DNA of 64,000 bases. Origin: Patescibacteria group bacterium (GTDB lineage Bacteria; Patescibacteriota; Minisyncoccia; Phycocordibacterales; Phycocordibacteraceae). The position numbers were made by a program, and so were the translations under genes. Every line of letters starts with the position of its first letter. Positions within the stretch are counted from its first letter, which is position 1. Location: NCBI GenBank assembly GCA_038064495.1, contig JBBTSZ010000002.1, positions 280,934-344,933 on the forward strand, in the 5' to 3' direction. The notes under the pieces are model-generated. The model did no database searches. It had not been told where the DNA came from and was given only the letters and a program-made list of their open reading frames with translations. Of this stretch, positions 2,927 through 48,860 are shown piece after piece.

Positions 2927-3700
2927 ATGATTTCACTCCTCATACCACTCTCCATACTCCTTGCGTACATGACCTTCTTGTATGTCATTGCGCTTCTTGC
3001 GAAGAACAATGCACTTGCGGACGTGGGTTATGGTATCGGTTTCAGCATTCTTTCGGTGGCGACGGTGTTTAATGCACCGCTTGCCTCAAGTGGCTCGCTT
3101 ATCTTGGTTGCGCTTGTGGCACTCTGGGGAAGTCGTCTCTCACTTCGCATCTTCACCAAGAACCGCGGCAAACCGGAAGATTTTCGATACAAGGCTTGGC
3201 GGGACGAATGGGGTGACCAATTCGCACTTCGCAGTTTCCTCCAAGTGTTTATGCTTCAAGGGTTGATTATCTTTCTCGTCGCGCTTCCGGTGACGCTTGC
3301 GCTCACGCATCCTAACTTCTTGCACTCACCACTCTTTACGTTCGGGTTTCTGGTGTGGTGCGTTGGCTTTCTCCTTGAGGCAGTCGGTGACTACCAACTT
3401 GATGCCTTTATCACAAAGTCTGAGAATACGGGAAAGATTATGCAGTCGGGACTCTGGAAGTACACCCGCCACCCAAACTACTTTGGCGAGAGCGTCATGT
3501 GGTGGGGAATTGCAGTATCCGCTTCAAGCATAACAACACTCCCTCTTTTGTGTTTCGTAAGTCCCGTCCTCATTACGTATCTGTTGCTCCGCGTCTCCGG
3601 TGTACCGCTTCTTGAAAAGCGATGGGAAGGGCGTTCAGATTGGGAAACATATAAAGCAAAAACACCCGTATTTATTCCTCTTATAAAAGAATTCAAATAA
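2927..3700 (+). CDS. DUF1295 / steroid 5-alpha-reductase-like (ICMT-fold) membrane protein
   Basis: Polytopic membrane protein with the signature WKYTRHPNYFGE near the C-terminus. Confidence 0.6.
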   Translation: MISLLIPLSILLAYMTFLYVIALLAKNNALADVGYGIGFSILSVATVFNAPLASSGSLILVALVALWGSRLSLRIFTKNRGKPEDFRYKAWRDEWGDQFALRSFLQVFMLQGLIIFLVALPVTLALTHPNFLHSPLFTFGFLVWCVGFLLEAVGDYQLDAFITKSENTGKIMQSGLWKYTRHPNYFGESVMWWGIAVSASSITTLPLLCFVSPVLITYLLLRVSGVPLLEKRWEGRSDWETYKAKTPVFIPLIKEFK

Positions 3701-6749: not shown

Positions 6750-7832
6750 ATGCACATGAAAGCTCCTCAGGTGGCCTCAAAAGGACCCCTCTATCTTGGT
6801 GGGGCGCTCCTCGCAACCGTTCTTCTTATCTTCATCGTGTTGCCTGAAGTGTTTGCAGGCAGGTATGACAGTGCTCAAGCACAAGGAACCTCTACCGTGA
6901 AAGCTATCTTCAATAAAGTAGCGGACGCACCCCCAACCCTTGATACCAAAGACTATGACCGCCGCATGCTTAAGCTTGCCAACTACGCAAGTACCACTGC
7001 AAGCACGACACGTGCGTGGCCGGTAAAGGGTCCCTATCCAAAAGTCGGAGCCGTTCTCCCGTTTAAACGCATTGTTGCATACTACGGTAACTTCTATTCA
7101 ACCAAGATGGGGGCGCTCGGAGAATATCCACCTGACATCATGGTTCAGAAGTTGGATCACGAGGTGAAAGTGTGGGCTGCTGCTGACCCGTCTACACCGG
7201 TCGTGCCTGCCATTCACTACATTGTAACGACTGCACAGGGTACCGCTCAGGCAGACGGCACGTATCGTCTTCGGATGCCCGCCGCACAAATTCAAAAAGC
7301 TATTGATCTTGGAAATCAAATACACGGACTCGTCTTCCTTGATATACAGGTCGGCCTCTCTGACCTACCGCGTGAACTTCCGCGTCTTGAGCCGTATCTC
7401 AAACAACCAAACGTGCACCTTGCCGTTGATCCTGAATTCGCGATGCATAATGGGGTGAAGCCGGGACGTGTCATTGGCACGATGGACGCCGTCGATATAA
7501 ATTACGCAACCACCTTCCTTGCTCGTATTGTGAAGGAAAATAATCTTCCACCAAAAATCTTGGTCATTCATCGGTTCACTGAAGATATGGTGACCGGCTA
7601 CAAACGAATTACCCTTCAGCCAGAAGTGCAGATAGTCATGGACATGGATGGCTGGGGATTTGGTGCAAAAAAGATAAATACCTACAAGCGGGTCATTACA
7701 CAGGAGCCCGTACAGTTCACTGGATTTAAATTATTCTATAAAAACGACCTCAAACCGCCCTCTACACGCCTTTTGACTCCACAAGAAGTGCTGAGTCTTA
7801 CACCTGCGCCAAGTTATATTCAGTACCAGTAG
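6750..7832 (+). CDS. membrane-anchored extracytoplasmic protein, possibly TIM-barrel glycoside-hydrolase-like
   Basis: N-terminal TM anchor followed by a ~320-aa soluble domain (LVFLDIQVGLSD...HLAVDPEF). Family not firmly recognised. Confidence 0.45.
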   Translation: MHMKAPQVASKGPLYLGGALLATVLLIFIVLPEVFAGRYDSAQAQGTSTVKAIFNKVADAPPTLDTKDYDRRMLKLANYASTTASTTRAWPVKGPYPKVGAVLPFKRIVAYYGNFYSTKMGALGEYPPDIMVQKLDHEVKVWAAADPSTPVVPAIHYIVTTAQGTAQADGTYRLRMPAAQIQKAIDLGNQIHGLVFLDIQVGLSDLPRELPRLEPYLKQPNVHLAVDPEFAMHNGVKPGRVIGTMDAVDINYATTFLARIVKENNLPPKILVIHRFTEDMVTGYKRITLQPEVQIVMDMDGWGFGAKKINTYKRVITQEPVQFTGFKLFYKNDLKPPSTRLLTPQEVLSLTPAPSYIQYQ

Positions 7833-7903
7833 CGAGGTGGAAAACGTAAGGAACGTCGCTTGTTGACGGTAGACTTTCGGTATAGCTCTTAATTTACTAA
7901 CGT

Positions 7904-8173
7904 ATGACACACCTACCACCCATTAAAGTTGGTCTCGTCTTCGGGTTATTTCTCGCACTCCTGCATATCGCATGGTCTACACTTGTGGCTCTCCACCTCG
8001 GTCAACTTCTGCTTAATTTCTCTCTACGCATGCACATGATCCGGCCTGCATTCACGGTGGAACCATTTGATATAGGGCGAGCACTTGGACTCGTCATTAT
8101 TGCTTTTTGTATTGGTTACATTGTGGGACATGTGTTCGCTAAAATATGGAACCTGGTCGCGCACGGGTCGTAG
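7904..8173 (+). CDS. small membrane protein
   Basis: 89 aa with three hydrophobic helices. Confidence 0.35.
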   Translation: MTHLPPIKVGLVFGLFLALLHIAWSTLVALHLGQLLLNFSLRMHMIRPAFTVEPFDIGRALGLVIIAFCIGYIVGHVFAKIWNLVAHGS

Positions 8174-14795: not shown

Positions 14796-17525
14796 ATGGA
14801 GGGCCCTCGTACACCACTCGCGTCAACAGAGGACGAGCTCGCATATTTGCGTGCAGAAGTGGCGCGCAAAGAGGCTGAGCTGGCTCATCTGAAAGAGCGT
14901 CCGAGCCGGGAGGAGATTGTACGTGACCGGTTGAAAGAGCATAAAGACGCAGATGCGTCGGTTCTTGCGAGTGAGTACAAGCTTCCCGCTACCGAAGTTG
15001 CGCAGGTGGTACTCAACCTTTCACCGGAGCAAAACGATGAGACCATTGCTGAGCTGCGGGCGGTTATGGAAGAAAAGGGTATTAAGAACGCGCTTACGGT
15101 GCTTGATGCACTCAATAACCCCCACCTGGAAGATGACTTTCATCGTTTCCTCGTGCAATACCTCCTTGCCGGGGTACCGGTGAAGGGGCTTGAAGAAGGA
15201 CAACCCGCGTGGAAGGCACTCCGCATGACGTTGTATGAGATTGCGCTCCCTGAGACAGATACCAAAACGGACCAAAATCAGAAAGTGAGAACGCTTAAGG
15301 AGTTGGTCTCTGCGATGGAGCAATTCTATTCAGGCATGCTCAGCGTTGAAAATGCAGTTAAGAATGAACCCCCGTATTTTACGCTTGAGCTTGCGGTTCC
15401 TGTAAATTCCCCGGTGCTGCAATTTTATGCGGCAGTTCCGAATAGCAAGCGCGATTTGTTTGAGAAACAACTCCTCGCGATTTTTCCAAACGCGCGTCTT
15501 ACCATTCAGCCAAACGATTACAATGTCTTTGTAGAAGATGGGACATCCTTTGGTGCTTTTGCAACGCTGAAAGACCGTCACATGCTTCCCCTGAAGCAGT
15601 ACGACGAATTTGATTACGATCCGATTAACTCTATTCTAAACGCGTTCGCAAAAATCTCAGCAGAAGGTGAAGGAGCGTCGCTTCAAATCGTGATTCAACC
15701 CGCAGGCAGTCACTACACGGACCATTACCGTCGTGTGTTGGCAGAACTTCGCAAAGGGGAGAACAGGTACCGAGCGTTCAATACCCCAGAGACCTTTGTG
15801 GGTGACCTCGCACGAGAAGCATTCGGACTCCTTAAGACTTCGCAGAAAGCGCTTGATCCATCCAAGGCTGACAAAGTCGCGATTGAACAGGTGGAGCGAA
15901 AAATTGGTTCACCTATCGTGGATACCAATATCCGCATTGTGGTTTCTTCCGAAGATGCTGTCCGTGCTGAATCCATACTTTCTGAACTTGAATCCTCGTT
16001 CAATCAGTTTGAAAATACGATTGGGAATCGGTTTGCATTCTATCGCGAGAAAGAGAAAGATAAGAAAAAGCTATTTCATAACTTTACCTTCCGTCTTGCC
16101 ACAAAGGGCAGCACACTTGCGCTCTCACTTCGTGAACTCACGACGGTGTACCATTTCCCACCGAAAGGTATTACGTCAACACCGCATCTGGCTCAGTCTC
16201 GCTTTTCTTCTGCACCGGCTCCTGCTGGTATGCCCTCTGACGGCATCGTGCTTGGTGTAAATGAGTACCGTACGGCAAAGACTGAAGTGCGGCTTTCTCC
16301 CGAAGACCGTCTGCGCCATATGTACGTGGTGGGGCAGACCGGTACCGGTAAAACGTCCTACATGAAGACCTTGATTGAGCAGGACATTAAAGACGGCAAC
16401 GGCGTGTGCTTCATTGACCCACACGGTAACGACATCTTGGACGTACTCGCCTCTATTCCGCCTTCGCGCTATGAGGACGTGATTTATTTTGACCCAGCGG
16501 AGATTTCTCGCCCGTTCGGGCTCAATTTGCTTGAGTACGATGAAGACCACCCGGAACAAAAGACCTTTATCGTAAACGAACTTCTCGCCATCTTCAGAAG
16601 ACTCTACGGAGACGTGCCGGAGTCTATGGGTCCTGCGTTTGAGCAGTACTTTAGGAACGCTACACTCCTCGTCATGGAAGACCCTGCAAGCGGTTCAACA
16701 CTCATGGATATTAGTCGCGTGCTTTCTAATAAACCATTCCGTGACTATAAACTAGGGAAGTCAAACAACCCGATTGTAAATCAGTTTTGGAAGGAGATTG
16801 CGACCCAAGCAGAGGGAGAAGCCTCTCTTGCAAACATCGTTCCGTATATCACTAACAAATTTGACGACTTCACCGCAAACGACTTTATGCGTCCGATTAT
16901 TGGACAACAGGAAAGTTCCTTCAAGTTCCGTGACGTGATTGATGGCAAGAAGATTTTGCTCGTGAATTTGTCCAAAGGACGTCTTGGCGAGAGGAACGCA
17001 AACCTTCTTGGACTTATCTTGGTTGGTAAGCTTTTCATGGCAGCACTGTCGCGAGCCGATAATCCACGAGGCGACTTCCCGCCGTTCTATCTCTATATTG
17101 ATGAGTTCCAAAACATTACGACCGATTCTATCCCTGGCATTTTGTCTGAAGCTCGTAAGTACAAACTCTCGCTCACCATTGCGCACCAGTTCTTGTCACA
17201 GGTAGATGAGAAAATCAGGAATGCCGTGTTTGGTAACGTCGGCTCCATGACCGTCTTCCGTGTCGGACAGGAGGATGCTGAATTCTTTGAAAAGCAATTT
17301 GCTCCGGTAGCGAGCGCATCCGACTTCACTTCCATTGAAAACTACAATGCGTACGTCAAACTGCTCGTGCACGGCGTACCGCAGAAGCCATTTACTATCC
17401 ACACACTTCCGCCAGTCGCTGGTCGCGAAGCGCAGGTGGACGATCTTCGTCAGCTTTCCTACCTGACCTATGGCCGCGACCGTAGGGCGGTGGAAGAAAA
17501 CATACGAGCGCGCTACCTTTCTTAA
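14796..17525 (+). CDS. TraD/VirD4-like (type IV coupling protein family, FtsK/HerA superfamily) P-loop ATPase with novel ~450-aa N-terminal domain and no TM segment
   Basis: The C-terminal half carries Walker A VVGQTGTGKTSYM, FIDPHGNDI, Walker B FYLYIDEFQN and a following TIAHQF. The N-terminal half is soluble and starts with a coiled coil (ELAYLRAEVARKEAELAHLKE), with no recognisable domain. A TATACT -10-like hexamer ends 9 nt before the ATG, so a leaderless transcript is possible. Confidence 0.75.
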   Translation: MEGPRTPLASTEDELAYLRAEVARKEAELAHLKERPSREEIVRDRLKEHKDADASVLASEYKLPATEVAQVVLNLSPEQNDETIAELRAVMEEKGIKNALTVLDALNNPHLEDDFHRFLVQYLLAGVPVKGLEEGQPAWKALRMTLYEIALPETDTKTDQNQKVRTLKELVSAMEQFYSGMLSVENAVKNEPPYFTLELAVPVNSPVLQFYAAVPNSKRDLFEKQLLAIFPNARLTIQPNDYNVFVEDGTSFGAFATLKDRHMLPLKQYDEFDYDPINSILNAFAKISAEGEGASLQIVIQPAGSHYTDHYRRVLAELRKGENRYRAFNTPETFVGDLAREAFGLLKTSQKALDPSKADKVAIEQVERKIGSPIVDTNIRIVVSSEDAVRAESILSELESSFNQFENTIGNRFAFYREKEKDKKKLFHNFTFRLATKGSTLALSLRELTTVYHFPPKGITSTPHLAQSRFSSAPAPAGMPSDGIVLGVNEYRTAKTEVRLSPEDRLRHMYVVGQTGTGKTSYMKTLIEQDIKDGNGVCFIDPHGNDILDVLASIPPSRYEDVIYFDPAEISRPFGLNLLEYDEDHPEQKTFIVNELLAIFRRLYGDVPESMGPAFEQYFRNATLLVMEDPASGSTLMDISRVLSNKPFRDYKLGKSNNPIVNQFWKEIATQAEGEASLANIVPYITNKFDDFTANDFMRPIIGQQESSFKFRDVIDGKKILLVNLSKGRLGERNANLLGLILVGKLFMAALSRADNPRGDFPPFYLYIDEFQNITTDSIPGILSEARKYKLSLTIAHQFLSQVDEKIRNAVFGNVGSMTVFRVGQEDAEFFEKQFAPVASASDFTSIENYNAYVKLLVHGVPQKPFTIHTLPPVAGREAQVDDLRQLSYLTYGRDRRAVEENIRARYLS

Positions 17526-17528
17526 TCT

Positions 17529-19007
17529 ATGAAATTCGGAAGCTTTGAAATACCACCCCGCCCAACTTCTGCTGAAGGTACGGAAGATTTTGTGGAGACA
17601 CCACGTGAGAAAAAAGAAGCACTAGAAAAGGTCGTGACAAGCGCAGCAGCACGAATTGAAGCATCCGAGAGAACGAAGGACACGCTACCACTGGATTCGG
17701 TGGAGCGACTCGTCTCACCACTAACCGAAGAAAAAATCTCGGAAGCTCTTGGACGTCTGCGCGCTCGCCTGAACGCTCCAGAGGAAAAGCTTGCGAAGAC
17801 GATAACGCTACTCCCGGAAGAGGTGCAACAGGCATATACCGAGAGTACGGTTCCACAATCCGCAGAAACTTCCAAAAAAGGTCGCAGGAACATGCTACTT
17901 GCCGCAGCTGGTCTCTTTTCGCTTGGTACCGGTGCGTTGAGTGAAAAAGCAGAAGCACAGACCAATTCCACCCAACCATCCTATGAACGGCTGTTCGGAA
18001 ACCAGTCTTTTGAGGCAAAGGCATCACCCGAACACATACCAAGCCCCGATAAACTCTTTCTAGACTTACGACAGTCACTTTTTGAAAAGTACGGGAGCTT
18101 GGAACGTGCTCCAGACAAAGTGTCACAGATTATTATGACGGACCGGAATTTTGACATTGTTGTTCGCGCACTTGGTTTTATCCAAGGCAAAGAAACAGCG
18201 ACGCTTGAAGCCGGCGATCACCTTTCCATAGATACTCACGGCCAACTCCTTTTTCATTCAAAAAAAGGAACACTGGTGCTTATGACGTCTTCCCGGCTGG
18301 ACTCGTTTAAAGTGCAAAACACGTATCGTGGACCACTGCACCCTCAGTCCCAAGAAGAGTATGCCCAGGCAGAGCGAGATGAAGTGGAAACAGCATATCC
18401 CGAGGCGAAGCCAGAAAAAAAGCGAGAGGTTGCTCCTGGTGTGCCCTACGTAGGAGGACATGCACAGGACCTTCCAAAGAAGCCAAGCACACCGAAACCG
18501 CGCTCGCCTGGCCCCGACACTCCGCTGTATCCAGCAGATCCTACGCGGCCAGGTCCTATGCCAAACCGGCCTCCGGCCACTCCGCCTCCTGGGGAGTCAA
18601 TCACTGAAGATAGGGAAGCAAGGCCAAAACCAAATCCGCCGGAAGTTGGTAGTACACCACCTCCTACTCCTGAAAAAGCAACAACACCAGAAGCATTCTT
18701 TGCACCTTCCACTGCTGGTATCTATCAGGATGCTGCTGGTAATCTATTTGTACTCGGGGGGTCTATTAGCGACCGCCTTATCTTGGGCCAGGAATATCTC
18801 ACCAAAAGCGAACATCTCGGTAAAAAACTACAACTGTTTACCATTACTGAAAGTGCTGATCCGCAGACGGGAGTACCTGACGTGAGCATGTTGGTTGAGG
18901 ATGGTAGTGGAAAAGTAAATCTCCAACCCATCGTTCGCGATCCAAGAACCGGAATACCGGTCGCACCGCCGACTAAGGATGAGCTGGTACGAAAAATTGA
19001 ATCATGA
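17529..19007 (+). CDS. bitopic membrane protein with proline-rich extracytoplasmic linker
   Basis: Starts 3 nt after the ATPase stop. A ~118-aa cytoplasmic N-terminus is followed by one TM helix (MLLAAAGLFSLGTGAL), a ~100-aa globular part, and a ~90-aa P/T/K-rich linker (PKKPSTPKPRSPGPDTPLYP...PPTPEKATTPE). A C-terminal domain follows. Confidence 0.6.
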   Translation: MKFGSFEIPPRPTSAEGTEDFVETPREKKEALEKVVTSAAARIEASERTKDTLPLDSVERLVSPLTEEKISEALGRLRARLNAPEEKLAKTITLLPEEVQQAYTESTVPQSAETSKKGRRNMLLAAAGLFSLGTGALSEKAEAQTNSTQPSYERLFGNQSFEAKASPEHIPSPDKLFLDLRQSLFEKYGSLERAPDKVSQIIMTDRNFDIVVRALGFIQGKETATLEAGDHLSIDTHGQLLFHSKKGTLVLMTSSRLDSFKVQNTYRGPLHPQSQEEYAQAERDEVETAYPEAKPEKKREVAPGVPYVGGHAQDLPKKPSTPKPRSPGPDTPLYPADPTRPGPMPNRPPATPPPGESITEDREARPKPNPPEVGSTPPPTPEKATTPEAFFAPSTAGIYQDAAGNLFVLGGSISDRLILGQEYLTKSEHLGKKLQLFTITESADPQTGVPDVSMLVEDGSGKVNLQPIVRDPRTGIPVAPPTKDELVRKIES

Positions 19008-32947: not shown

Positions 32948-33020
32948 GGGCCGTTAGCTCAGTTGGTAGAGCACCTCATTTGCAATGAGGGGGTCGCAGG
33001 TTCAAATCCTGTACGGTCCA
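32948..33020 (+). tRNA. tRNA-Cys (GCA)
   Basis: Cloverleaf read by eye: acceptor gggccgt/acggtcc (G3-U70), D arm gctc...gagc, anticodon stem cctca/tgagg with loop tttGCAa, T arm gcagg-ttcaaat-cctgt. CCA is not encoded. Confidence 0.8.
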
Positions 33021-33063
33021 CACGTGTCAAGGCGTCATTTTGTGCGCCTGACGCCCAATCCCC

Positions 33064-33714
33064 ATGAACGATTCAGAATTGAAAGCTCTGGAAAATACCT
33101 ACAAAGAAGTCTCATCTCTTAGAGATGAGTTCTTCCTCCATCGCGCCCAAACCGCAACAGCGTTATTACAGAGTCAGTTACAATTCCTTCAGGGGTTGGC
33201 CACAATAATTCTGGCTTTTATTGCCATTCTTGTAGCAACCAAATCATTTGAAATTAATCTTTGGTACTTTCTTTCTGGTGGAATTGCCTTTGTGCTTGTT
33301 TTATATACGTTTACTTTTATTAGAGAGTCAATAGATTCAGTAGATGAGGACATGAGACAAATTGATAATAAGCTTGAGATTGCAGAGAAGGAGGTGATTT
33401 CTAAGATTAAGGAAGCAATACGAGTGAACAACTACAACGTGATGTCGAACTACGCGAAGGACAGAATTGAGGCCTTGCAAGTAGAAATGGACCTATCCTA
33501 CGCTGGAGAAATATCCATGTTCCTATTTTTTTCTAGTTTATTATTTTGCATCATAGCTATTCTTAAGTCATACCAAATCTTCAGTCTGATTGATCAGAAC
33601 CAGGTATGCATTGTCATAGGTGTGCTAAGCACTGCAATATTATTCTCCGCTAACTGGAACTTGAAGCTTACACGCTCTATCTCGAGGCTTCTACAAATCA
33701 AGCTCTGGGCTTAG
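33064..33714 (+). CDS. AT-rich membrane protein (3-4 TM), hypothetical
   Basis: GC is clearly below the surroundings. Hydrophobic helices. No homology recognised. Confidence 0.4.
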   Translation: MNDSELKALENTYKEVSSLRDEFFLHRAQTATALLQSQLQFLQGLATIILAFIAILVATKSFEINLWYFLSGGIAFVLVLYTFTFIRESIDSVDEDMRQIDNKLEIAEKEVISKIKEAIRVNNYNVMSNYAKDRIEALQVEMDLSYAGEISMFLFFSSLLFCIIAILKSYQIFSLIDQNQVCIVIGVLSTAILFSANWNLKLTRSISRLLQIKLWA

Positions 33715-33931
33715 GCGACTTCTCCAGATTCCTTCTGCCACTCCTTCTTCAGTCTCTCTGCCGTTCGTATCCGGTTAGCTTTCTCAATATTTTGCCATCC
33801 AGAATTTCTCTTGCGCCGCGGAATGTAGAGGAGTTCAGATAGCTCGATTTCTTTCTCTTTATCGCCTATGCGCTTGATGAGCTCGCGCTTAGATTCCTTA
33901 GAAGTTCGAACTGCGGCATGATGCGGTCCAC

Positions 33932-33976
33932 AAAAACAATGAGGCCACTCCGCAAGGAGTGGCCGATTCTGTTTTT
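33932..33976 (+). terminator. bidirectional terminator hairpin
   Basis: Perfect 9-bp stem ggccactcc/ggagtggcc with GCAA loop, flanked by an A-run upstream and a T-run downstream. Confidence 0.55.
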
Positions 33977-34169
33977 GTAGGTCCGTACAGGATTTAAACG
34001 TCGGAGCGGGGACCCAATCAGCAGAGTGGGTCGCGAGACGGTGCCCAGAGCTGCCGCGAGTGGCGACGAGCGTCAGACTCGCGGGCAAAAGCGTACTCGC
34101 GTTCCGGTACGGTCCACATTAGTTCACAAAGGCAAAGATTCCGTCATTCTGTATTGGCACGCTTAGATT

Positions 34170-36506
34170 TTGGGAGGTTCTAATCTTCTCGTGGACATTC
34201 CATTCCTAGTGCGGGATTATGAAGGAATGAAAGGGATTATCGCGTGGCTCAAGAGACTTTTGCCTTCGAAGAAAGAGGAGGCTCAACCAGTGAGTGAGTC
34301 GGCTGGCTCCATTATGCCAGAAGCTGAGGAAAAATCGACCTATTCCGCAGATAAGCCAATAGAAACGATCGATCAAGACCGTTTCAACCGATGGGCTTTT
34401 GCAAGGCGAATTGCGGATACCCTCTCCACACGCACTGATCCAAGTAGTGTCGTTGTTGGCGTGTACGGACCTTGGGGAGATGGAAAGACCTCAGTCCTCA
34501 GACTGATGGAGATTGCACTCGCAAATCACCCCAAGATCATTCCTGTTCGCTTTAATCCGTGGTACTTCGGTTCACAGGAGCAGTTACTGCAGGGTTTCTT
34601 TAAGACGGTTGCAGAAGCGGCAGGAAAATCCCTCGTTCATAACGGAGAAAAGTTCGGCAAGTTTCTAGAACAATATGGCTCCTTGCTGTCGCTAGCGTCT
34701 CTCAGTCTCAGCGGTGGGATAGTGTCGGTCGGTTCTGGAGGAGAAGCGGCAGTTGGTCTAGGTAATGCACTTTCTACAGTCGATTTGGATAAACGACGCG
34801 AAAGACTCGAGAAAATCCTCGAAGAAACCGACAAGCGTATCATCGTGATGATTGATGACATCGACCGACTTGATCAGGATGAGATTCATGCAATCTTTAA
34901 GCTCGTAAAACTATCAGCTGGTTTCAACCGAACCAGCTACGTACTTGCTCTAGACGACGAAATGGTTTCCGGAGCTTTGAGTAAGAAATACGGAAGCGGG
35001 AATGCACAAGCCGGTCGAAATTTCTTGGAGAAGATAGTACAAGTCCCTCTACACGTACCGGCGGCTGATGAGATTGAACTCAGGCGAGTTACTCTCGAGG
35101 GCGTCGATGCCGCATTGAAGCTCAGCGAGATAGAGCTGTCTCAGGAACAAGCAGACACATTCACGAGACACTTTGTTGATGGTATTGAAGAGAGAATTCT
35201 CACTCCTCGACAAGCAAAGTTGTACGCAAACGCCATAACATTTGCTTTGCCGATCCTCAAAGGCGAAGTGAATCCAGTCGACCATATGCTCATCGAAGGT
35301 ATTCGGGTGTTTTACCCGAAGCTCTATGTCGTCATACGTGAGAACCCCAGTTTCTTCCTAGAAGCTCCGAGAGACGAACAAAGAGGTGACGTACAACGTC
35401 AGCGAATACATACCTTGATCGACACGGCTCTAAAAGAGGCTGGTATCGAGGATCCTGTGCATGTAAAGGATCGCTTGATCAAACCGATGTTTCCTCGTGC
35501 GATAGGTAACGTTTCGTACGGGTCTGAGTGGGATAAAACATGGGCAAAAGAACAGAAAATCTGCTCGTCCGAATACTTCAAGCGCTATTTCCAATACAGC
35601 GTTCCTGCAGGAGATGTACCCGATCTCGCCACAGAAACCTTCCTCAAAGACATAGGCACGAAAACAGACAGTGAGATAGACGAAACAATCATGAGTTTTA
35701 GCGGGAAAAATGGACTCGCTTCGCTCGTGAAGAAGCTACGCAATAAGGAGACAACGATTGATCCCGATATCGCGCCGAAACTAGCACTAGGTTTTGCTCG
35801 GGCCGGAGCATTTGTGCCGCGAGAGAAAGCAATGTTCTCAGACTGGAGCTTCTCCCAAGCAGCAATATTAGTTTCAGCACTTGTTAAAAGGGTGCCGGCC
35901 GGGAAACGACGAGATGACCTTGCAAGAGAACTTATGCGGAGCGCTACACCTCTCGCCTTCGCCTTTGAGTGCTTACGTTGGCTGGGAAAAGATCCGGAAG
36001 ATAAAGACGATGATCGCGTCCTTTTGGAAGCTATGGAAAAGGAAATAGGAGCGATACTTGCAGAGAGAATTAAAGAAGACGCCGCAAAAGGTCCCTTGTA
36101 CAAAACCTATGGGAGCGATACTCCACGTCTATTCTGGGCATGGCATCACTATGGAAACCAAGCGCAAGTAAAAAAGTACTTGGAGGATAGTTTCGACGCT
36201 CAACCGAACGATGTATATGACTTTCTAGATACGTATGTTGGCGTGAGTTGGGGTATCGAGAACGGTCTGCCAAGCAGATCGGAGTTTCAGAGAGAAAGCT
36301 ACAACAGCATAGAAAAGATGATCTCTCCTGATTTTATTATGGCGAAGCTCCGCATTCAGTTCGGTAGCGAGCTGGATAATCCAGAATATTACCAAACGAA
36401 AGATACTCCAATTCAAAAACAGCTTGCTCACCAGTTCGCTATCTGCCACAGCAAAGCTGTGAGTGAGCGTAAACCTCCCGATCCTCCCAAGAGTCCACTA
36501 GCTTAA
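34170..36506 (+). CDS. KAP-family P-loop NTPase with ~450-aa C-terminal extension
   Basis: Shows DQDRFNRWAFARRIADTL, Walker A GVYGPWGDGKTSVL, and Walker B IIVMIDDIDRLD. The tracker start is TTG at 34170; ATG at 34227 (MKGIIAW) is an alternative. Confidence 0.8.
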   Translation: MGGSNLLVDIPFLVRDYEGMKGIIAWLKRLLPSKKEEAQPVSESAGSIMPEAEEKSTYSADKPIETIDQDRFNRWAFARRIADTLSTRTDPSSVVVGVYGPWGDGKTSVLRLMEIALANHPKIIPVRFNPWYFGSQEQLLQGFFKTVAEAAGKSLVHNGEKFGKFLEQYGSLLSLASLSLSGGIVSVGSGGEAAVGLGNALSTVDLDKRRERLEKILEETDKRIIVMIDDIDRLDQDEIHAIFKLVKLSAGFNRTSYVLALDDEMVSGALSKKYGSGNAQAGRNFLEKIVQVPLHVPAADEIELRRVTLEGVDAALKLSEIELSQEQADTFTRHFVDGIEERILTPRQAKLYANAITFALPILKGEVNPVDHMLIEGIRVFYPKLYVVIRENPSFFLEAPRDEQRGDVQRQRIHTLIDTALKEAGIEDPVHVKDRLIKPMFPRAIGNVSYGSEWDKTWAKEQKICSSEYFKRYFQYSVPAGDVPDLATETFLKDIGTKTDSEIDETIMSFSGKNGLASLVKKLRNKETTIDPDIAPKLALGFARAGAFVPREKAMFSDWSFSQAAILVSALVKRVPAGKRRDDLARELMRSATPLAFAFECLRWLGKDPEDKDDDRVLLEAMEKEIGAILAERIKEDAAKGPLYKTYGSDTPRLFWAWHHYGNQAQVKKYLEDSFDAQPNDVYDFLDTYVGVSWGIENGLPSRSEFQRESYNSIEKMISPDFIMAKLRIQFGSELDNPEYYQTKDTPIQKQLAHQFAICHSKAVSERKPPDPPKSPLA

Positions 36507-36608
36507 GAAAATGTGTTGGTCTGGATTGAATCAAGGAAGTTCTAAGATCCCAGAAACCTCTCTTGAGATAGAACTTTTACATATGAGGTAGTTGAGTATA
36601 ATTATCAC

Positions 36609-37103
36609 ATGAATATGGAAGCAGCAGGAGGCAGGCGAAATCTCGAAAAGCGTGAGTCAGAAGAGGCAGAACCTTCTCTTCCGACCGACCCAATTGAGGC
36701 AGCGGCTTGGCTAGAAGAAATTTGGAAGGGAGGCGGGGGATGGGAGGGCCAGCATCCGTTGCGGTTAAAAGTGAAAGATCCCAAAGACTATCAAGAATTG
36801 TCAGAAGAAGAAAAGAAAGAATTTAATAAACTAGGGAAGCAATTTACATGGCTCGCTGAAATGCATCGTTCAGAGATGTCGTGGTCACAATCATATGCTC
36901 ATACTAATTACGGTGAGGTAGTCGGCTTTCGCTTTGGCTATGAGACACCGGAAAATCCTGAGGACGATATTCCGGAAGCGTACATCTATCGTCCTTTTGA
37001 TGAAAAGCAGCCTAAAGTTTTCGTAAGTAGGGCGAGTAATGGGTGGAAAGTAGAGCCTCTGGAAGCGGTGGCAGAAAGCTACGCAAAGAATTTTGACTAC
37101 TAG
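36609..37103 (+). CDS. hypothetical acidic protein
   Basis: 164 aa with no recognisable domain. Downstream of the KAP NTPase. Confidence 0.4.
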   Translation: MNMEAAGGRRNLEKRESEEAEPSLPTDPIEAAAWLEEIWKGGGGWEGQHPLRLKVKDPKDYQELSEEEKKEFNKLGKQFTWLAEMHRSEMSWSQSYAHTNYGEVVGFRFGYETPENPEDDIPEAYIYRPFDEKQPKVFVSRASNGWKVEPLEAVAESYAKNFDY

Positions 37104-37150
37104 ATCTCTGCTCGTTCATATTTAGAATGAAATCTGTGCCTGCAGTAGTT

Positions 37151-37180
37151 TAAAAAAAGCCCCGCCATTCCGGCGGGGCT
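37151..37180 (-). terminator. minus-strand terminator
   Basis: Stem agccccgcc/ggcggggct followed by seven T on the minus strand. Confidence 0.6.
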
Positions 37181-37187
37181 TGATAGT

Positions 37188-37361
37188 TCATTGCTGCCGA
37201 GACCGGGCGAGTTGTCTCTCGACGACCAACTGAACTTGAAGATTAACTGGCTCGATCCTTTCTCGCCGGCCTTTCTTGACCGTCCGATATCCAATTTGGT
37301 CGCCTCGGGCGATCATACTCGCGATTTCGTCATTACTGAGCTCCCGGGAAGGTGTGCCCAT
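37188..37361 (-). CDS. small basic protein (57 aa; start uncertain)
   Basis: ORF terminates just upstream of the 37151-37180 terminator. ATG preceded by GGAG at 7 nt. Confidence 0.3.
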   Translation of the reverse strand: MGTPSRELSNDEIASMIARGDQIGYRTVKKGRRERIEPVNLQVQLVVERQLARSRQQ

Positions 37362-37489
37362 TCCTCGTCTCCAACCAACGACGGACAAAGTCATCCGTGT
37401 CGAATAGGGTAATACACCATCAAGTAATAGCAAATACAGCAGTTGGAAACAAAAAGCCGCCCGCGGACAGCTTTCCGTAGGCGGCGTAC

Positions 37490-37636
37490 TTAGCGAGGTG
37501 CAAACATCATAGCGATCAGAAGGATGGTGACCATTGCGCCCAGTCCGCATACAATCCAGAAGTTGAACTTCTGTTTAGCAGCGTAATAGTTGGCGATGGC
37601 TTGTTTTTGCTCTGGTGAGATATAACCTTCTTCCAT
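37490..37636 (-). CDS. small single-TM membrane protein (48 aa)
   Basis: AAGGAG SD precedes the ATG. C-terminal TM helix. A hairpin plus T-run lies downstream at about 37446-37485. Confidence 0.45.
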   Translation of the reverse strand: MEEGYISPEQKQAIANYYAAKQKFNFWIVCGLGAMVTILLIAMMFAPR

Positions 37637-37850
37637 TACGGTTCTCCTTTCTAGACAAAACTTATCATATGTTGCAAAAGGTTCCAATATAATCACGGTA
37701 GAGGGATGTAGTGACTTGGTTTGGTACATATACCTCAGGTTGCTTTTCCATTTCCCTACCTCTTTCTAAGTAATACGTTAGCATTTACAGAATCACCACT
37801 TCGTGGTTTAGTATTCCTTAGAATACTCTGCACAATTGAAAGGGCATAAA

Positions 37851-38273
37851 ATGACACAATCTATAAATTTTGTAGATGATGGCCACCTGTTGTATTGGGG
37901 ACAGCTCGCTGTATGCAAAGCGCTTGGATTAAGCGATGAAGCCGTTCGATTAGGGACTCGAGAGATAAATAACTTCTTGCCGCATGGCATCCTTATTTCT
38001 GGGTCTGATTTTTCCGTCCAAGTTCTATCGAAACAAGTTCGTGGCAATACGTCTAACATATTCGGTAATTACTGCGAAGCTACTATCATTTTTGTTCGCT
38101 CACATCCAGGTAACCTTAGTCAGCAAAAAGAGTACAAAGTGAAACCCTTCACACTACCAGGCTACAGCGACTGGCTCGCAGGCAAGAAAAAGCTTCTTGA
38201 ACGGTTGAAGTCTGAAGAGGAGGCTCGTTTTGAAGCCTTCAAAAGAAGGCGACTCGAAAGAGCTAACGCATAG
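37851..38273 (+). CDS. AT-rich hypothetical protein
   Basis: GAAAGGG SD. 140 aa with no recognisable domain. Followed by a terminator. Confidence 0.4.
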   Translation: MTQSINFVDDGHLLYWGQLAVCKALGLSDEAVRLGTREINNFLPHGILISGSDFSVQVLSKQVRGNTSNIFGNYCEATIIFVRSHPGNLSQQKEYKVKPFTLPGYSDWLAGKKKLLERLKSEEEARFEAFKRRRLERANA

Positions 38274-38284
38274 AAGTCATTGTG

Positions 38285-38323
38285 AGAGCGCACGACCTTT
38301 GGGTACGGCGCTCTTTTACTTTT
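38285..38323 (+). terminator. terminator
   Basis: Stem agagcgc/gcgctct with a 16-nt loop, then TTTTacTTTT. Confidence 0.45.
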
Positions 38324-38544
38324 CATAGTTATCAAGGACTAAATGAGTTTCGACACTGGCTCGTTGTAATAGATAGGCCGTATATACGGCATGTGGTAGT
38401 GACGGCACTACTTTCTTTTTAGATTTGCAAGGTCGAGGTGCCGACTCAAAAGAAGAGTTACTAGGTATATCTAAGAAGTGTGCAAGACTACAACTATATG
38501 AAACTCACCCCATCTAATGCTAATTCCCGTATTAGCGTCCTCAC

Positions 38545-39786
38545 GTGAAGCCTCGTGCGGACGATACCAGCCAGCCCTATTCTGACCGCGAACTCCAAGG
38601 TCTCAAAGAGCTCAAAACAGCTCGGGCGAGTATTCTAAAGAATCTCCAAGATACCGAGGAAGAATCACAGAATAATCTCCAGAAAACGGCCATTGATGAA
38701 GCTGTACTTGAGAGTATTGGTGACGGGCTGGTCGTTATGGACAAACTCGGCATTATTACCTATGTGAACCCAGCGCTTGAGCGCATGGTCGGCTGGACCC
38801 TCGACGAAATCGTGGGGAATTCCATCGTGGACACACTTATCCTGGAAAAAGAAAAAGGCGAGAAAGTCTCCTACAACGAAGAAATTTTATCTAAGGTACT
38901 TGCCGGCGGTATTGTCGTCGCTGATTTAACCAATCCGTTTTATCACGTGCGCAAAGATAAGAGCACCTTTCCGATAAGTACAACGGTGAGCCCCATCCTC
39001 CTTGCAGGAGAGATTATTGGTGCGGTTATGACGTTCCGCGACATTACGAAGGAGAAAGAAATTGATAAGGCAAAAACGGAGTTTGTCTCGCTTGCTTCGC
39101 ATCAACTGCGTACTCCGCTTTCCACGATTAATTGGTACACCGAAATGCTCCTTGCCGGTGATGTTGGAAAACTGAGTGACAAACAGGATACCTATCTGAG
39201 GGAAATCTACCGGGGAAGTCAGCGAATGGTTTCTCTCGTGAATGCTCTTTTGAGTGTCTCGCGCATGGACCTCGGCACCTTTGTGCTTGAGCCAGAGCCA
39301 ACAGACTTTGTGCGGCTCATACAAACTATTATCCGCGAGCAGCAATTTCATATTGAGCGCAAAAAAATCATCGTCACCACGTCATTCCAAGACTCTCTGC
39401 CTCTCATCCATGCTGATGGAAAACTGCTCAGTATGGTTGTTCAAAACATATTATCCAACGCGGTGAAATATACTCCCGATAACGGCACTATAGATCTCAC
39501 GCTCACGCTCATCCCAAGTGCAAACACGCTTCGCCTAAAGATTAAAGACACCGGCTATGGCATTCCACTCGCCCAGCAGGAGCAGATTTTCACCAAGCTT
39601 TTTCGTGCTGACAACGTGCGCGAAAAAGAAACCGAAGGTACGGGCCTTGGTCTCTACATTGCAAAGACCATTATTGATAACTCTGAAGGGAGACTGTGGT
39701 TTGAATCCGAAGAAAACAAGGGTACGACCTTCTACTTGGAACTGCCGGCATTTTCTGACCAAGTTACTACCAAACACAAGGTATGA
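38545..39786 (+). CDS. cytoplasmic PAS-domain sensor histidine kinase
   Basis: No TM segment. Coiled N-terminus, then a PAS domain (IGDGLVVMDKLGIITYVNPALERMVGWTLDEIVGNSI), H-box LASHQLRTPLSTINWYTEML, N-box VVQNILSNAVKYTP, and G-boxes DTGYGIP and GTGLGLYIA. Confidence 0.85.
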   Translation: MKPRADDTSQPYSDRELQGLKELKTARASILKNLQDTEEESQNNLQKTAIDEAVLESIGDGLVVMDKLGIITYVNPALERMVGWTLDEIVGNSIVDTLILEKEKGEKVSYNEEILSKVLAGGIVVADLTNPFYHVRKDKSTFPISTTVSPILLAGEIIGAVMTFRDITKEKEIDKAKTEFVSLASHQLRTPLSTINWYTEMLLAGDVGKLSDKQDTYLREIYRGSQRMVSLVNALLSVSRMDLGTFVLEPEPTDFVRLIQTIIREQQFHIERKKIIVTTSFQDSLPLIHADGKLLSMVVQNILSNAVKYTPDNGTIDLTLTLIPSANTLRLKIKDTGYGIPLAQQEQIFTKLFRADNVREKETEGTGLGLYIAKTIIDNSEGRLWFESEENKGTTFYLELPAFSDQVTTKHKV

Positions 39787-40820: not shown

Positions 40821-43800
40821 ATGAACTCATCTTGGCTCGAGCGTATTGGACGAAGCATATTCGTCTCTGTACTTTTACTATCCGTCATACTTAGTGGCTT
40901 TCCTGAAGTGCAGGTGCAAGCTGCAACCACTTCGCTGGCGGCTGCAAGCCAGTCAACCGTACTCACGGTTGGTGCCACATCGGGAGATGTCGGTGTCTTC
41001 CAGGCAGTATTGCAGAAGCTCGGGTATCTCAACTCTACTCCAACTGGCTACTACGGCACTCAGACCAAAGCAGCTGTTGCAATATTCCAAAAATTTAATC
41101 GCCTCCCTGTTACTGGTTCGGTGGATGACCGTACCCGTTACTATCTTGGACAAGCAATTGCGCAGCTAGGCGTTAAAGCACCAGTACTTACAACGACGTC
41201 GTCTGTACCCGCGAAAATCAGAACAACCTTACCGCCTACACCAGTAACAACTCCTGTTGCAACAGCACCAAGTACAACGACACTTAAGGTTCGCTCTACA
41301 GGCGGGAAGGTTACGGAAGTACAGAAGTCTCTGAACACCCTCGGACTTCTTGCTGTTGAACCAACTGGATATTTTGGAACTCTAACAGAAGCTGCTGTTA
41401 AAAAGTTTCAAACCAATAATTTGTTGCCTGTCACTGGACAAGTAGATACAACAACTAATCAAATACTCACAACTACTGCCAGCACCGTTCCTCTTGCCGA
41501 CAGCACAACCAAAACGACTACAACGACTACCGTAAAGACGGCTCCTGCCAAAACGCCTCCGCCAGCACCTGCTGATACAACACTAACGTTTAGTTCCTCC
41601 GATTCTTCTGTTGTCGTTGGTACGTCGTACACACTCAGATGGAGTTCACAACATGCCGAAAGTTGTACTGCTTCCGGAGAGTGGTCGGGTACGTTTTCAA
41701 CAAAAGGAAGTAAGACCTTTACACCGACAACAGAAGGGACAAGAACCTACATACTCACCTGCTACGGAAAGTCAGGCTCGGTAGTAGGGAGTCAAACCGT
41801 TGTTGTAACTGCAAACACTGACCCCGTTGTAGCGCCCCCACCAGCTCCAGCACCGTCACTCACGTTCACGGCAACTCCGACGACAGTTACATCAGGTGGT
41901 AGTACTACACTTACGTGGACTACGAAAGATGCAACCAGCTGCACAGGAACAGGAGATGGGATTACCGGTACTCAGCCAACGAGTAAAACCGTGACCGTGT
42001 CTAACATCACCTCTGACCGAACTTTCTCTCTCTCCTGTACCGGTGCGGGTGGCACGGTCGCAAAGTCACTCACCGTAACCGTTACTGAACCAACACCTGT
42101 GCCGACCGTTGCACCAACGCTTATCTTTAGCGCAAGCGCAACTTCAGTTTTCTCGGGCGGAAATGTCACCCTCACCTGGTCCACCACAAACGCAACAAGC
42201 TGTACCGGTACAGGCCAAGGCATTGTCGGTACTCAGCCTACGAGTAAGTCAGTATCAGTATCAAACATCACCTCTAACCAAACCTACAGTCTCACCTGTA
42301 CGGGAGCAGGAGGCAGTATTACCAAATCCATAACTGTTGTGGTCACGGGACCAGCACCACTTACCGGTGTCGTGTCTGAAGGAGACTCCATCTCTGTTTT
42401 TTGGAGTGGGAACCACACGGGTATCTACGCTGCCGCAAATCCAACTGTTCCCTTCAAGGGACTTGCAGTGGGTGGTTCAGGCATTGGTACTCTCACAGCA
42501 CGCCAGCAGGCAGTACTTGATGCGAAGCCAAAAGTATTCACTGTATTTATTGGTGCCAATGACTTAACGAGTTACTCTTCTGCAACAGCCTTTACTAACG
42601 CTCTCTTCTCATATGTTGCAACGATTAAGGCAACCGGTGCAAAAGTTGCGGTAGCCACCATACTGCCGCAACAAATCGCAAATGCGTCGGCAAATAATGC
42701 CTTGCATAATACTCGTCGAGTAGAGGCAAACAACATTATCCGAGCAGCTGTTGGCGGAAAAATAGATGGGGTCATTGACTTCGCAGCTGACCCAACAATG
42801 GGACCTGATTCAGCGGCAGCTAATACAACCTTGTATTACGATGGTCTTCATCCAACTGATGGAAATAGTGCCGGTACAGGAGGTCAAAATAAACTTGCGC
42901 TTGTGTATGGACCAGTCGTAAACGCACTTCTTAACGGGACTCCAGTACCAACACCTTCCCCGTACATCACACCAACGCTGACCTTCACTGCAAGCGCATC
43001 GTCAGTTACTTCAGGAGGAAGTGTTGACCTTACCTGGTCCACCACAAACGCAACAAGCTGTACCGGTACAGGCCAAGGTATTGCTGGCATGCAGTCAACG
43101 AGCAAGACAACGACAGTATCAAACATCACCTCTAACCAAACCTTCAGTCTCACCTGTACGGGTGCTGGTGGAAGCGTTACAAAATCTGTGAGTGTAACAG
43201 TTCTTGCTCCACAGCCCTCTCCGTCAACTATCCCTGCATCTATTCCAAGCAATTTTGACATCAACTCAGAACTCGTTCCGTCATGGGGAACGGGAGCTAT
43301 ACCCGCAAGTGCAGCCCCTGATGTTGTTGGTGCCTTCCGCTTTATCTGTAACGCAAGCCATGAATCATTCGATGACCCTATTGTCTATCCGGGACAACCA
43401 GGCAAATCACACTTACATGAGTTCTTTGGCAACACACTAACGAATGCAAACTCTACCTATCAGAGTCTTCGTACAACGGGAAATAGCACCTGTAACAGTC
43501 CACTTAACCGTTCAGGATATTGGATTCCAGCGATGATTAATGGGGCCGGGCAAGTAGTACGTCCAGACTACGTCTCTATCTACTACAAGCGCCGTCCAGA
43601 TACCGATCCTCTCTGCACCAAGATTGGGAAATCGTGTGTTGACTTGCCTCGTGGACTTAGATTCGTGTTCGGAGCAAACCTAGTCAGTGCAACACCAACC
43701 ACAGGAGGAGGATATTTTAACTGCACGGGTCCTACCGCAACTTCCGGGCATTATAAAGACATCGCTACCGCAGCAAAGAATTGTCCTGCGGGAAATCAAA

Positions 43801-48789: not shown

Positions 48790-48860
48790 GGGCCTATAGT
48801 GAAGTGGTATCACGCATCCATGGCATGGATGAAGTCGGAGTTCGATTCTCCGTAGGTCCA
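48790..48860 (+). tRNA. tRNA-Ala (GGC)
   Basis: Acceptor gggccta/taggtcc with the G3-U70 Ala identity pair. Anticodon stem catcc/ggatg with loop atGGCat. T arm cggag-ttcgatt-ctccg. Confidence 0.75.

Follow-up and report, generated by a model that had tools for sequence, protein, structure and literature searches.

Little is understood of how Patescibacteria (the Candidate Phyla Radiation, CPR), with their very small genomes, gain and trade accessory and defence genes, and the DNA just downstream of one tRNA gene raises the question in a concrete form: was it acquired as one genomic island or assembled from separate pieces? The gene lies in a stretch of 64,000 nucleotides (hereafter the window) on a 397-kb contig from a Hainich aquifer metagenome (well H41, 0.1 µm fraction), the NCBI organism name of which is Patescibacteria group bacterium. 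A first-pass annotation, made from the sequence alone, had described a single island of ~5 kb behind a tRNA-Cys(GCA), centred on a KAP-family P-loop NTPase. Comparison with related loci suggests instead that the interval is probably an insertion hotspot, variable between lineages and between strains, next to the 3' end of a tRNA-Ala(UGC) gene, shaped by integration and cassette exchange and carrying a candidate anti-phage gene, rather than a single island.

The tRNA gene itself is present where it had been placed and was called by both ARAGORN and Rfam, but its identity had to be corrected: it is a tRNA-Ala with the anticodon UGC, codon and anticodon having been mixed up in the earlier reading. 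Its anticodon loop reads TTTGCAA and its acceptor stem has a G3:U70 pair (G3:T70 in DNA). The change of composition reported 3' of this gene is quantitative. Core open reading frames (ORFs) have a GC content of 0.502±0.030 and a codon-usage score of 0.056±0.042, and every ORF in 33064-38273 scores below zero, including those of 216, 164 and 140 aa designated here M216 (-0.053, GC 0.387), A164 (-0.005) and O140 (-0.067, GC 0.439), as well as the KAP gene (-0.024). The score is back up to 0.071 in the histidine kinase gene at 38545. The public gene calls give proteins of 216, 759 (KAP, start 34227), 164 and 140 aa, and place the PCD start at 32574.

For comparison, 80 species-level loci of relatives were used that have UvrA-UvrC-Ddl-(PCD)-tRNA-Ala(UGC) in common (these and the other loci compared bear L-numbers below); relatives retrieved via Ddl are Paceibacteria/Kaiserbacteria-type metagenome-assembled genomes. 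None of these 80 loci has M216, KAP, A164, O140 or the small ORFs of the interval within 10 kb, and the next downstream tRNA lies from 25 nt to >5 kb away from tRNA-Ala(UGC). The gene order is therefore clearly not common to the relatives, and the condition under which the first-pass annotation would have given up its island (one order throughout) does not hold. At the level of strains, the same well yielded a low-coverage contig (L006) that matches the window with 99.9% identity as far as position 33021 and is unrelated beyond, and the point of divergence (33021/33022) is exactly the 3' end of the tRNA. An interval at the 3' end of a tRNA that is horizontally variable and compositionally atypical is thus supported by both comparison and codon usage.

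The relatives also reveal where the interval comes apart. The tRNA joins a hairpin and a structured RNA-like module directly in L013, and the same hairpin-module arrangement stands directly 3' of the tRNA in L045, L046, L052, L095, L098, L099 and L101, so that window positions 33023-33932 represent an insertion between the tRNA and this block. In L069 (Parcubacteria bacterium C7867-004) and L051 the tRNA is joined straight to the sequence that follows 34118 in the window, a non-coding leader unit, and the hairpin-plus-module block must therefore itself be an insertion, bounded by tail repeats of 16-19 nt. In L104 the tail of the tRNA is followed by a terminator, a TTGACT/TATAAT promoter and an A164 homologue, which is the simplest arrangement among the relatives, and L106 has an unrelated cargo gene, a full trailer unit, the same terminator as L104 and an A164 homologue. 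These two layouts imply that the leader-cargo-trailer block is also an insertion at the tRNA end, and that A164 is a conserved local anchor gene. All block junctions fall right after GGTCCAC or GACCAC. Between the tRNA and A164 (33023-36560) at least four blocks vary in presence separately from one another, and the description of one ~5 kb island does not hold. At nucleotide resolution the locus shows unrelated single-gene cargos swapped between conserved non-coding units with no local recombinase. The features are collected in Table 1.

Table 1. Features of the interval downstream of tRNA-Ala(UGC), in window coordinates.
Feature	Position	Strand	Description
tRNA-Ala(UGC)	32948..33021	+	ARAGORN; Rfam tRNA 72.6 bits; proposed integration anchor
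Insert 1	33023..33932	.	0.9 kb cassette, GC 0.418; block nearest the tRNA
M216	33064..33714	+	216-aa ORFan membrane protein, cargo of insert 1; GC 0.387
Insert 1 right end	33902-33932		AAGTTCGAACTGCGGCATGATGCGGTCCACA; degenerate copy of tRNA T-loop and 3' end
Long imperfect palindrome (repeat I2)	33924..33999	+	Tail copy, A-tract, GC hairpin 33943-33964, U-tract, inverted tail 33980-33999
Structured RNA-like module (insert 2)	33980..34117	+	~140 nt; closing helix between inverted and direct tail copies
Direct tail repeat (repeat D6)	34103..34118	+	TCCGGTACGGTCCACA, 15/16; right boundary of insert 2
Leader unit	34119..34186	+	Ends in T-loop-like core AGGTTCTAATCT (34175-34186), the left junction of the KAP cargo
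KAP (PifA-like)	34227..36506	+	759-aa P-loop NTPase; Pfam and PADLOC matches
Trailer unit, 5'-truncated	36474..36560	+	Tail copy GAGTCCAC; second leader-like unit ending GTTCTAAG
A164	36609..37103	+	Acidic, pI 4.8; own TTTACA/TATAAT promoter
Short basic ORF	37157..37361	-	57 aa from internal ATG (37188-37361); longest frame 37188-37550
Short single-transmembrane ORF	37445..37636	-	48 aa (37490-37636); longest frame reaches 37729; weak DUF2157-like match
O140	37851..38273	+	140-aa basic ORFan, GC 0.439; distal variable segment

The inner boundaries are marked by copies of the tRNA's own end. The 9-nt tail CGGTCCACA occurs at the tRNA end (33014-33022) and again at 33924-33932, where it is preceded from 33902 by a degenerate T-loop part; this 31-nt right end (AAGTTCGAACTGC...CGGTCCACA) is common to insert 1 and a different insert in L022. 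The inverted copy of the tRNA 3' end at 33980-33999 matches at 18/20 positions. The first-pass annotation had found no repeat of the tRNA 3' end, which is correct for the far boundary at ~38.3 kb and incorrect for the inside of the interval, with its direct and inverted copies. Within insert 1, the AT-rich membrane-protein gene was correctly recognised, M216 having several hydrophobic segments; its sole database match is itself, and no family match was found in Pfam, PADLOC, PHROG or NCBIfam. The bidirectional terminator noted after this gene also stands, as the GC hairpin at 33943-33964 scores terminator-like on both strands.

The single-island view would be that of a classical genomic island or prophage remnant, integrated once by its own integrase and then decayed with loss of the integrase. 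A position next to a tRNA, an atypical composition, tRNA-tail repeats and a central gene of defence type are all what this view would predict. However, each block has a repeat boundary of its own and is found or missing in relatives independently of the others, and A164, which would lie inside the island, is a local gene that is conserved; the ORFs of the interval yielded no integrase fragment, PHROG gave no matches except an unnamed family that matches KAP itself, and the distal end carries no repeat. A single integration is thus an improbable account of the interval. Judged by the features of tRNA islands, direct repeats of the 3' part of the tRNA bound the inner blocks (33924-33932, 34103-34118 and a degenerate copy at ~36490) and not the ~38.3 kb boundary, no integrase gene lies beside an att-like site, and the interval is absent from relatives and atypical in composition.

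A block structure of this kind is the product expected of repeated site-specific integration into a tRNA 3' end. The tRNA-linked islands of Prochlorococcus, built by repeated integration of tycheposons (doi 10.1101/2020.12.28.424599), are its closest documented analogue. Common to both are the streamlined genome, the location of the hotspot where a tRNA gene ends, older insertions pushed outward, scattered partial tRNA copies, and cargo of unknown function together with defence genes. Tycheposons, however, span several kb and carry a tyrosine recombinase and replication genes, whereas the window blocks measure 0.2-2.4 kb, hold 0-1 gene and no recombinase, and at one of their insertion sites a T-loop is mimicked within a non-coding unit that is itself conserved. 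Neither hallmark of tycheposons (tyrosine recombinase and replication module) was found in the window or among the recurrent families listed in the relatives' hotspots. As to integrons and clusters of attC sites lacking integron-integrases (CALIN), there is no integrase, and only one long palindrome (33924-33999) was seen, with none at the 3' end of KAP, in a comparison made with no dedicated attC model.

Several further observations concern the same tRNA in relatives and strains. In L006, positions 934-1363 right after the tRNA hold a terminator, a 65-aa membrane ORF and the end of a minus-strand gene, and the tRNA itself has a G in the T-loop where the window has an A. Logan assemblies of the same samples break within tRNA-Ala, at the ends of L004 and L005 (window 32975-32976) and the start of L002 (32993), as would be expected if strain variation at this site made the assembly graph branch. 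Downstream of their intact tRNA-Ala, L060 (4391-4490) and L075 (1860-1960 and ~2575) carry partial duplications of it that span ~55 nt, from the 3' side of the D-arm to the 3' end, as classic attL/attR-type repeats at the same hotspot. In many relatives (L020, L026, L037, L044, L054, L075) tRNA-Ala(UGC) is followed by a cluster of Val(CAC), Pro(CGG), Pro(GGG), Ala(CGC) and Ala(GGC); of these the window keeps only Ala(GGC), at 48790 and 15.8 kb away, the other four being absent from the 64 kb.

The leader and trailer units appear to form a slot for unrelated genes. The leader is conserved ahead of unrelated genes in L069, L051, L035, L022, L047 and L043, and the trailer, matched by blastn in L069 and L047, follows unrelated cargo in L069, L047, L022, L035 and L106. 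A full trailer begins with the core GGTTCTAATCTCCGA..., which is missing from the window copy, and in L106 it ends in GTACCAATGACCAC, a degenerate tail copy; the window trailer contains a degenerate tRNA-tail copy near 36490-36498 and encodes the last ~10 codons of KAP. Direct repeats of AGGTTCTAATCT (12-15 nt) flank the cargo in L069, L047, L022 and L035. This core resembles AGGTTCAAATCC of the tRNA, and its reconstructed uninterrupted form, as read by eye rather than from computed folding, can form a T-arm-like hairpin. The cargo proteins of either slot have no homology between genomes, and the cargos seen at the hotspot include the PifA-like NTPase of the window, a CHAT protease and ORFan membrane proteins. 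The CHAT match (a caspase-like protease) belongs to a 699-aa protein that occupies the slot equivalent to that of KAP, between leader and trailer, in L069 (11514-13613), and it could be another conflict-system gene. Fragments of the module 3' end (GCGTA[A/C]TCGCGGTCCTGTACG...) were seen as extra tandem or displaced pieces in L047 (12465-12560, reverse strand) and L099 (555-650), which suggests that module, leader and trailer units have recombined with one another repeatedly.

Some other candidates around these units were set aside. Apart from the two copies on either side of KAP, the window shows no enrichment of the core GGTTCTAAT, L051 is colinear with the L069 leader throughout and is not an empty leader/trailer hybrid site, and inspection of the trailer as a second structured RNA gave no consistent covariation. 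A minus-strand 125-aa ORF (33711-34088) extends over the module and probably does not represent a gene; neither the minus-strand frame at 33715-33923 nor the small ORFs received a Pfam, PHROG, NCBIfam or PADLOC assignment.

If the island is a known kind of locus, the structured module is its least expected component. In relatives, its block consists of an A-tract, GC hairpin and U-tract, the inverted tail, a GC-rich core of ~100 nt and the direct tail. The core has a conserved CGGAGC, a CAGCAG-loop hairpin, GCGAG, GGGGUCG, a GAGUGACGACGAG-loop hairpin and a small terminal hairpin, and a second subtype of the module has the same outer architecture. An alignment of five copies (MAFFT and RNAalifold) showed compensatory changes in 19/48 predicted pairs. 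The covariance model R1, built from these five copies and run over 1.3 Mb of related loci, found 19 copies. Wherever a tRNA gene is visible, the module shares its strand and begins just beyond its 3' end; in most cases this gene is tRNA-Ala(UGC), with tRNA-Ala(GGC) in L020 and L011 and tRNA-Val(CAC) in L095. The available sequence of L086 has no tRNA, and its copy scores as the model forward strand. In the model-fitted alignment, which is biased towards the model as the MAFFT-based pairs (19/48) are not, 91% of cells are paired and 38/48 pairs covary, with a covariation score of 0.418 compared with 0.134 in shuffled alignments (0/500 reach the observed value) and <=0.07 with slid partners. Rfam 15 gave no match at E <= 5 for the window region or at E <= 1 for six other module loci, leaving a motif of RNA-like character, backed by covariation and linked to the 3' ends of tRNAs, that Rfam does not contain.

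As for strand and function, the model scores ~21 bits on the reverse strand as against 83, and the predicted fold energy is -63.2 kcal/mol on the + strand (z = -3.3) and -55.4 on the other. The lower energy of the + strand and the invariant G·U pairs point to a putative RNA from the + strand, or to folding of the top strand. In L020, L087 and the second copy of L095, the inverted tail agrees with the tRNA beside it, as does the direct tail in L087; L011, by contrast, has a UGC-type closing helix beside a GGC tRNA, a mismatch that suggests transposition of the whole module unit. The module is most likely an RNA co-transcribed with the tRNA that would use an acceptor/T-stem-like closing helix, and its transcription would most likely proceed with or after the tRNA on the + strand. 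A conserved gene downstream of the module, as would be expected of a riboswitch or leader, was not found. The anatomy does not fit transfer-messenger RNA, T-box, retron, group II intron domain V, integron attC or IS200/IS110-type guide RNA, since the module lacks a tag ORF and a T-arm and has neither a reverse transcriptase nor a transposase in its vicinity. In viral contigs the specific module pattern had 0 matches, and a looser core pattern had >120 chance matches, with none of the 80 returned loci confirmed by the model.

Small, non-coding, repeat-bounded elements with presence polymorphism and a stable fold are known as miniature inverted-repeat transposable element-like repeats (Correia, Rickettsia palindromic elements or RPE) and as folded sites (integron attC, CTX phage attP). 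The module differs from these in that its terminal repeats copy the tail of a tRNA, its loops are conserved in sequence while its helices covary as in a functional RNA, and it is single-copy in the 64-kb window and always on the strand of the tRNA. A role of the module in recombination is possible. The bolder proposal, that it is an undescribed tRNA-linked mobile structured RNA whose tail copies, as working parts and not scars, pair with the tRNA-gene end as a guide or folded att site and mark or program integrase-less insertion of cassettes, defence genes included, through a recombinase located elsewhere, must be regarded as a long shot. If the motif does aid targeting, it would constitute a new way of building defence islands; if not, it would still give a large uncultivated phylum a new candidate non-coding RNA.

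The cargo of the leader-trailer slot in the window is a KAP NTPase. The first-pass annotation had recognised the family, Walker A (GPWGDGKTS) and Walker B (IIVMIDDIDRLD), all of which stand; its length of 778 aa does not agree with the 759 aa of the public gene call from 34227. The match to KAP_NTPase (PF07693) has an E-value of 4.6e-46 (157.8 bits, cut-off 20) over residues 76-358. Aravind and co-workers are said to have described this P-loop NTPase family in 2004. The two motifs fit GxxGxGKT/S and hhhhDDxDR, and residues G84, G86, K87, D210, D213 and R214, all present in the intact frame of the window, are invariant in 118 homologues. What had been taken for a long C-terminal extension is better regarded as a conserved part of a family of proteins typically ~750 aa long. 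This family has at least 1,843 members, 45-55% identical across phyla and patchily spread over Binatia, Burkholderiales, Ralstonia, Kaiserbacteria and a Xanthomonas plasmid, where the gene adjoins HEPN/Toprim and toxin/immunity genes. The suspected link to defence found support in PADLOC, as the PifA model matches at E = 2.3e-75 (protein residues 56-676, profile 3-653 of 720). The score of 253 bits is about a quarter of the 963 bits of genuine F-plasmid PifA, and the window protein may accordingly be described as a distant, colinear, full-length member of the PifA family.

The gene seems to have reached this neighbourhood by horizontal transfer. Downstream of UvrC-Ddl in far more distant genomes, the L090 copy of KAP is 74% identical to that of the window as against 34% for Ddl and 41% for UvrC, and the L092 copy 64% as against 50% for Ddl; this gap is strong evidence, drawn from sequence identities, that the gene moved horizontally to the same neighbourhood. 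Both copies belong to the four homologues closest to the window KAP (64-74% identity), which have an extra C-terminal domain of ~115 aa that it lacks. Alignment and tree place the window protein as sister to its closest homologue, nested in the clade with this domain, and it has therefore lost the domain; the loss coincides with the absence of ~45 nt from the start of the trailer, among them the core repeat on the right-hand side. After horizontal gain of KAP, one deletion may thus have taken both the C-terminal domain and the start of the trailer. A non-coding stretch upstream of KAP (ACACAAAGCCCGCCAC...GACGGGTT[C/T]TCTATG) is common to L088 (~2990-3240) and L092 (~7760-8000) and absent from the window; it could be a regulatory element of this clade. 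In L093 (8001-18262) and L094, a 52%-identical homologue on a Kaiserbacteria-type contig lies beside an N6/N4 methyltransferase, a ResIII/SWI2-SNF2 helicase and a large serine recombinase, which looks like a defence-island or mobile-element context.

An AlphaFold2 model of the window KAP (pLDDT 90, pTM 0.83) has an N-terminal P-loop domain and an all-helical C-terminal half. Transmembrane helices inserted into the NTPase domain are a mark of the KAP family. The insert between Walker A and B in the window KAP consists of helices 140-162 and 174-201 with a low-confidence loop at 163-175, and has a Kyte-Doolittle maximum of 1.44, below the cut-off of 1.6 applied for transmembrane-like segments; no clear transmembrane segment was found in the protein. 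The best whole-length structural match is RdrA, the ATPase of RADAR (PDB 8hr8, 8fnu; Foldseek probability 1.0, E = 2.6e-5), which likewise combines an N-terminal P-loop ATPase with a large helical C-terminal part. However, the TM-score is ~0.3, the identity ~11%, and the window KAP has no RdrB deaminase partner, so that the resemblance may serve as a lead and not as evidence of RADAR membership. The NCBIfam equivalog for QatA, the ATPase of QatABCD, scored 90 bits against a cut-off of 600, with no QueC/TatD-like neighbours. PifA, the F-plasmid protein that excludes T7-like phage when triggered by phage proteins, is similar in length (759 vs 741 aa), has an N-terminal KAP NTPase with Walker A and B, and is also a single gene on mobile or variable DNA; it differs in that the F plasmid has the repressor gene pifC directly upstream, where the window has the non-coding leader, and in that the window host is a CPR bacterium and its KAP is without a clear membrane segment.

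KAP NTPases fused to uncharacterised C-terminal regions have been shown by experiment to give Walker-B-dependent phage protection (PMC13552941). These proteins share with the window KAP the KAP domain, a large uncharacterised and mostly helical region, and occurrence as single genes in hypervariable or mobile contexts (one homologue of the window KAP, in L093, adjoins a serine recombinase); they differ in having transmembrane helices and C-terminal regions unrelated to that of the window protein. The window KAP is most likely a candidate single-gene anti-phage sensor and effector dependent on NTP hydrolysis, as judged from homology and context only. It might instead be a host NTPase of some other role or a decaying pseudogene, leaving the locus without immune function, and the lost C-terminal domain of its nearest relatives, the lack of conserved partner genes around KAP homologues and the questioning of PifA's primary role in literature quoted by PMC13552941 would fit such a view. 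On the other side are the intact frame with all invariant family residues and a confident fold prediction, the patchy distribution across phyla and on plasmids, the restriction-modification-like genes and recombinase in L093, the HEPN/Toprim and toxin/immunity genes on the Xanthomonas plasmid, and a defence ATPase, RdrA, as the closest solved fold. A non-defence role is accordingly considered rather unlikely, and this widespread and confidently modelled family appears to be a good candidate for phage-defence assays.

The comparison shows that the 3.5 kb between the anchors tRNA-Ala and A164 were built up by successive insertions, with each inserted block ending in a copy of the tRNA tail (...GGTCCAC). 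The pieces are (i) a leader/trailer unit, (ii) a cargo inserted into the T-loop-like core AGGTTCTAATCT, which in the window is the KAP gene, (iii) a block of ~200 bp with the structured RNA-like module, and (iv) the 0.9 kb ORFan membrane-protein cassette nearest the tRNA. The last of these is presumed to be the latest, in view of its adjacency to the tRNA and of polymorphism at strain level. A recombinase encoded elsewhere and acting in trans would bring in the blocks by recombining site-specifically at the T-loop/acceptor end of the tRNA or at a T-loop-like mimic, and homologous recombination via the conserved tRNA, leader and trailer would later reshuffle them among relatives; with a different emphasis, exchange may have proceeded mainly by the latter route.

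Several findings weigh against an insertion hotspot that carries an anti-phage gene. No integrase, recombinase or transposase was found among the called genes of the window from ~2140 to 64000, in agreement with the first-pass annotation, nor in the ORFs of the interval, and none of the recurrent Pfam families listed for 150 ORFs beside this tRNA in relatives is a recombinase, a survey in which single occurrences could be missed. No uninterrupted leader plus trailer ('empty site') was found among the loci compared, and no boundary repeat was found for the distal segment (37104-38544). The tail copies of the module, which are candidate att scars, also form its closing helix and could be functional parts of an RNA. 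The closest KAP copies (L088, L090 and L092) have no leader, trailer or tRNA-like flanks, and the mobility of KAP is therefore not tied to these. F-plasmid PifA (741 aa) aligns to the window KAP at 24% identity over its first 353 residues (BLASTP, first ~360), and the truncated window protein may be inactive.

Part of these findings would be expected of a hypervariable intergenic zone that changes only by homologous or illegitimate recombination after DNA uptake, the tail copies being functional RNA or terminator parts. The lack of a recombinase nearby, the mosaic of leader and trailer units between genomes and the KAP copies elsewhere without these flanks agree with such a zone, as do module tail copies that match the adjacent tRNA in L020, L087 and one of the L095 copies and always form the closing helix. 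It accounts less well for junctions that always fall at the same nucleotide after GGTCCAC, for T-loop-like core repeats of 12-15 nt flanking unrelated cargo in four genomes, for 55-nt partial tRNA duplications in L060 and L075 that are typical attL/attR products, and for a degenerate tRNA-like right end of 31 nt common to unrelated inserts in the window and L022. Recombination of this general kind is therefore regarded as an unlikely sole cause, and integration at the tRNA end with cassette exchange is preferred.

Beyond the trailer, A164 has 7 homologues at 58-75% identity, which, together with its position in the relatives, identifies it as a conserved local anchor and not a cargo; its acidic character had been noted correctly. 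The distal segment (37104-38544), with the two short minus-strand ORFs and O140, is absent from L104 and L106 and compositionally atypical. Copies of the tail, leader or trailer were sought beyond 36560 on both strands, and on the + strand none scored above shuffled controls; two minus-strand alignments slightly above the shuffles had no comparative support and were judged to be chance. The AT-rich orphan O140 was described correctly, with a terminator-like site at 38395-38412. Of the two small minus-strand genes said to have a terminator each, both ORFs are there. An 11-bp GC hairpin with a T-run at 37181-37157, detected by the terminator scan, follows the ORF at 37188-37361, which has no family match. 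The second hairpin (GCCGCC...GGCGGC with a T-run, ~37478-37445), after the ORF at 37490-37636, was read by eye and is absent from the scan.

Two other regions of the window deserve mention. Repeats of ~217 nt, 74-82% identical, lie at 41881-43186 within a gene for a 1212-aa secreted protein (PG_binding_1, GDSL lipase, DUF1996). At 14796-19007, a 909-aa protein (DUF8128, with a weak match to DUF87 HerA/VirB4-like ATPases) is followed by a 492-aa protein with no family match, and the two could form a module for DNA translocation or for secretion in this CPR genome.

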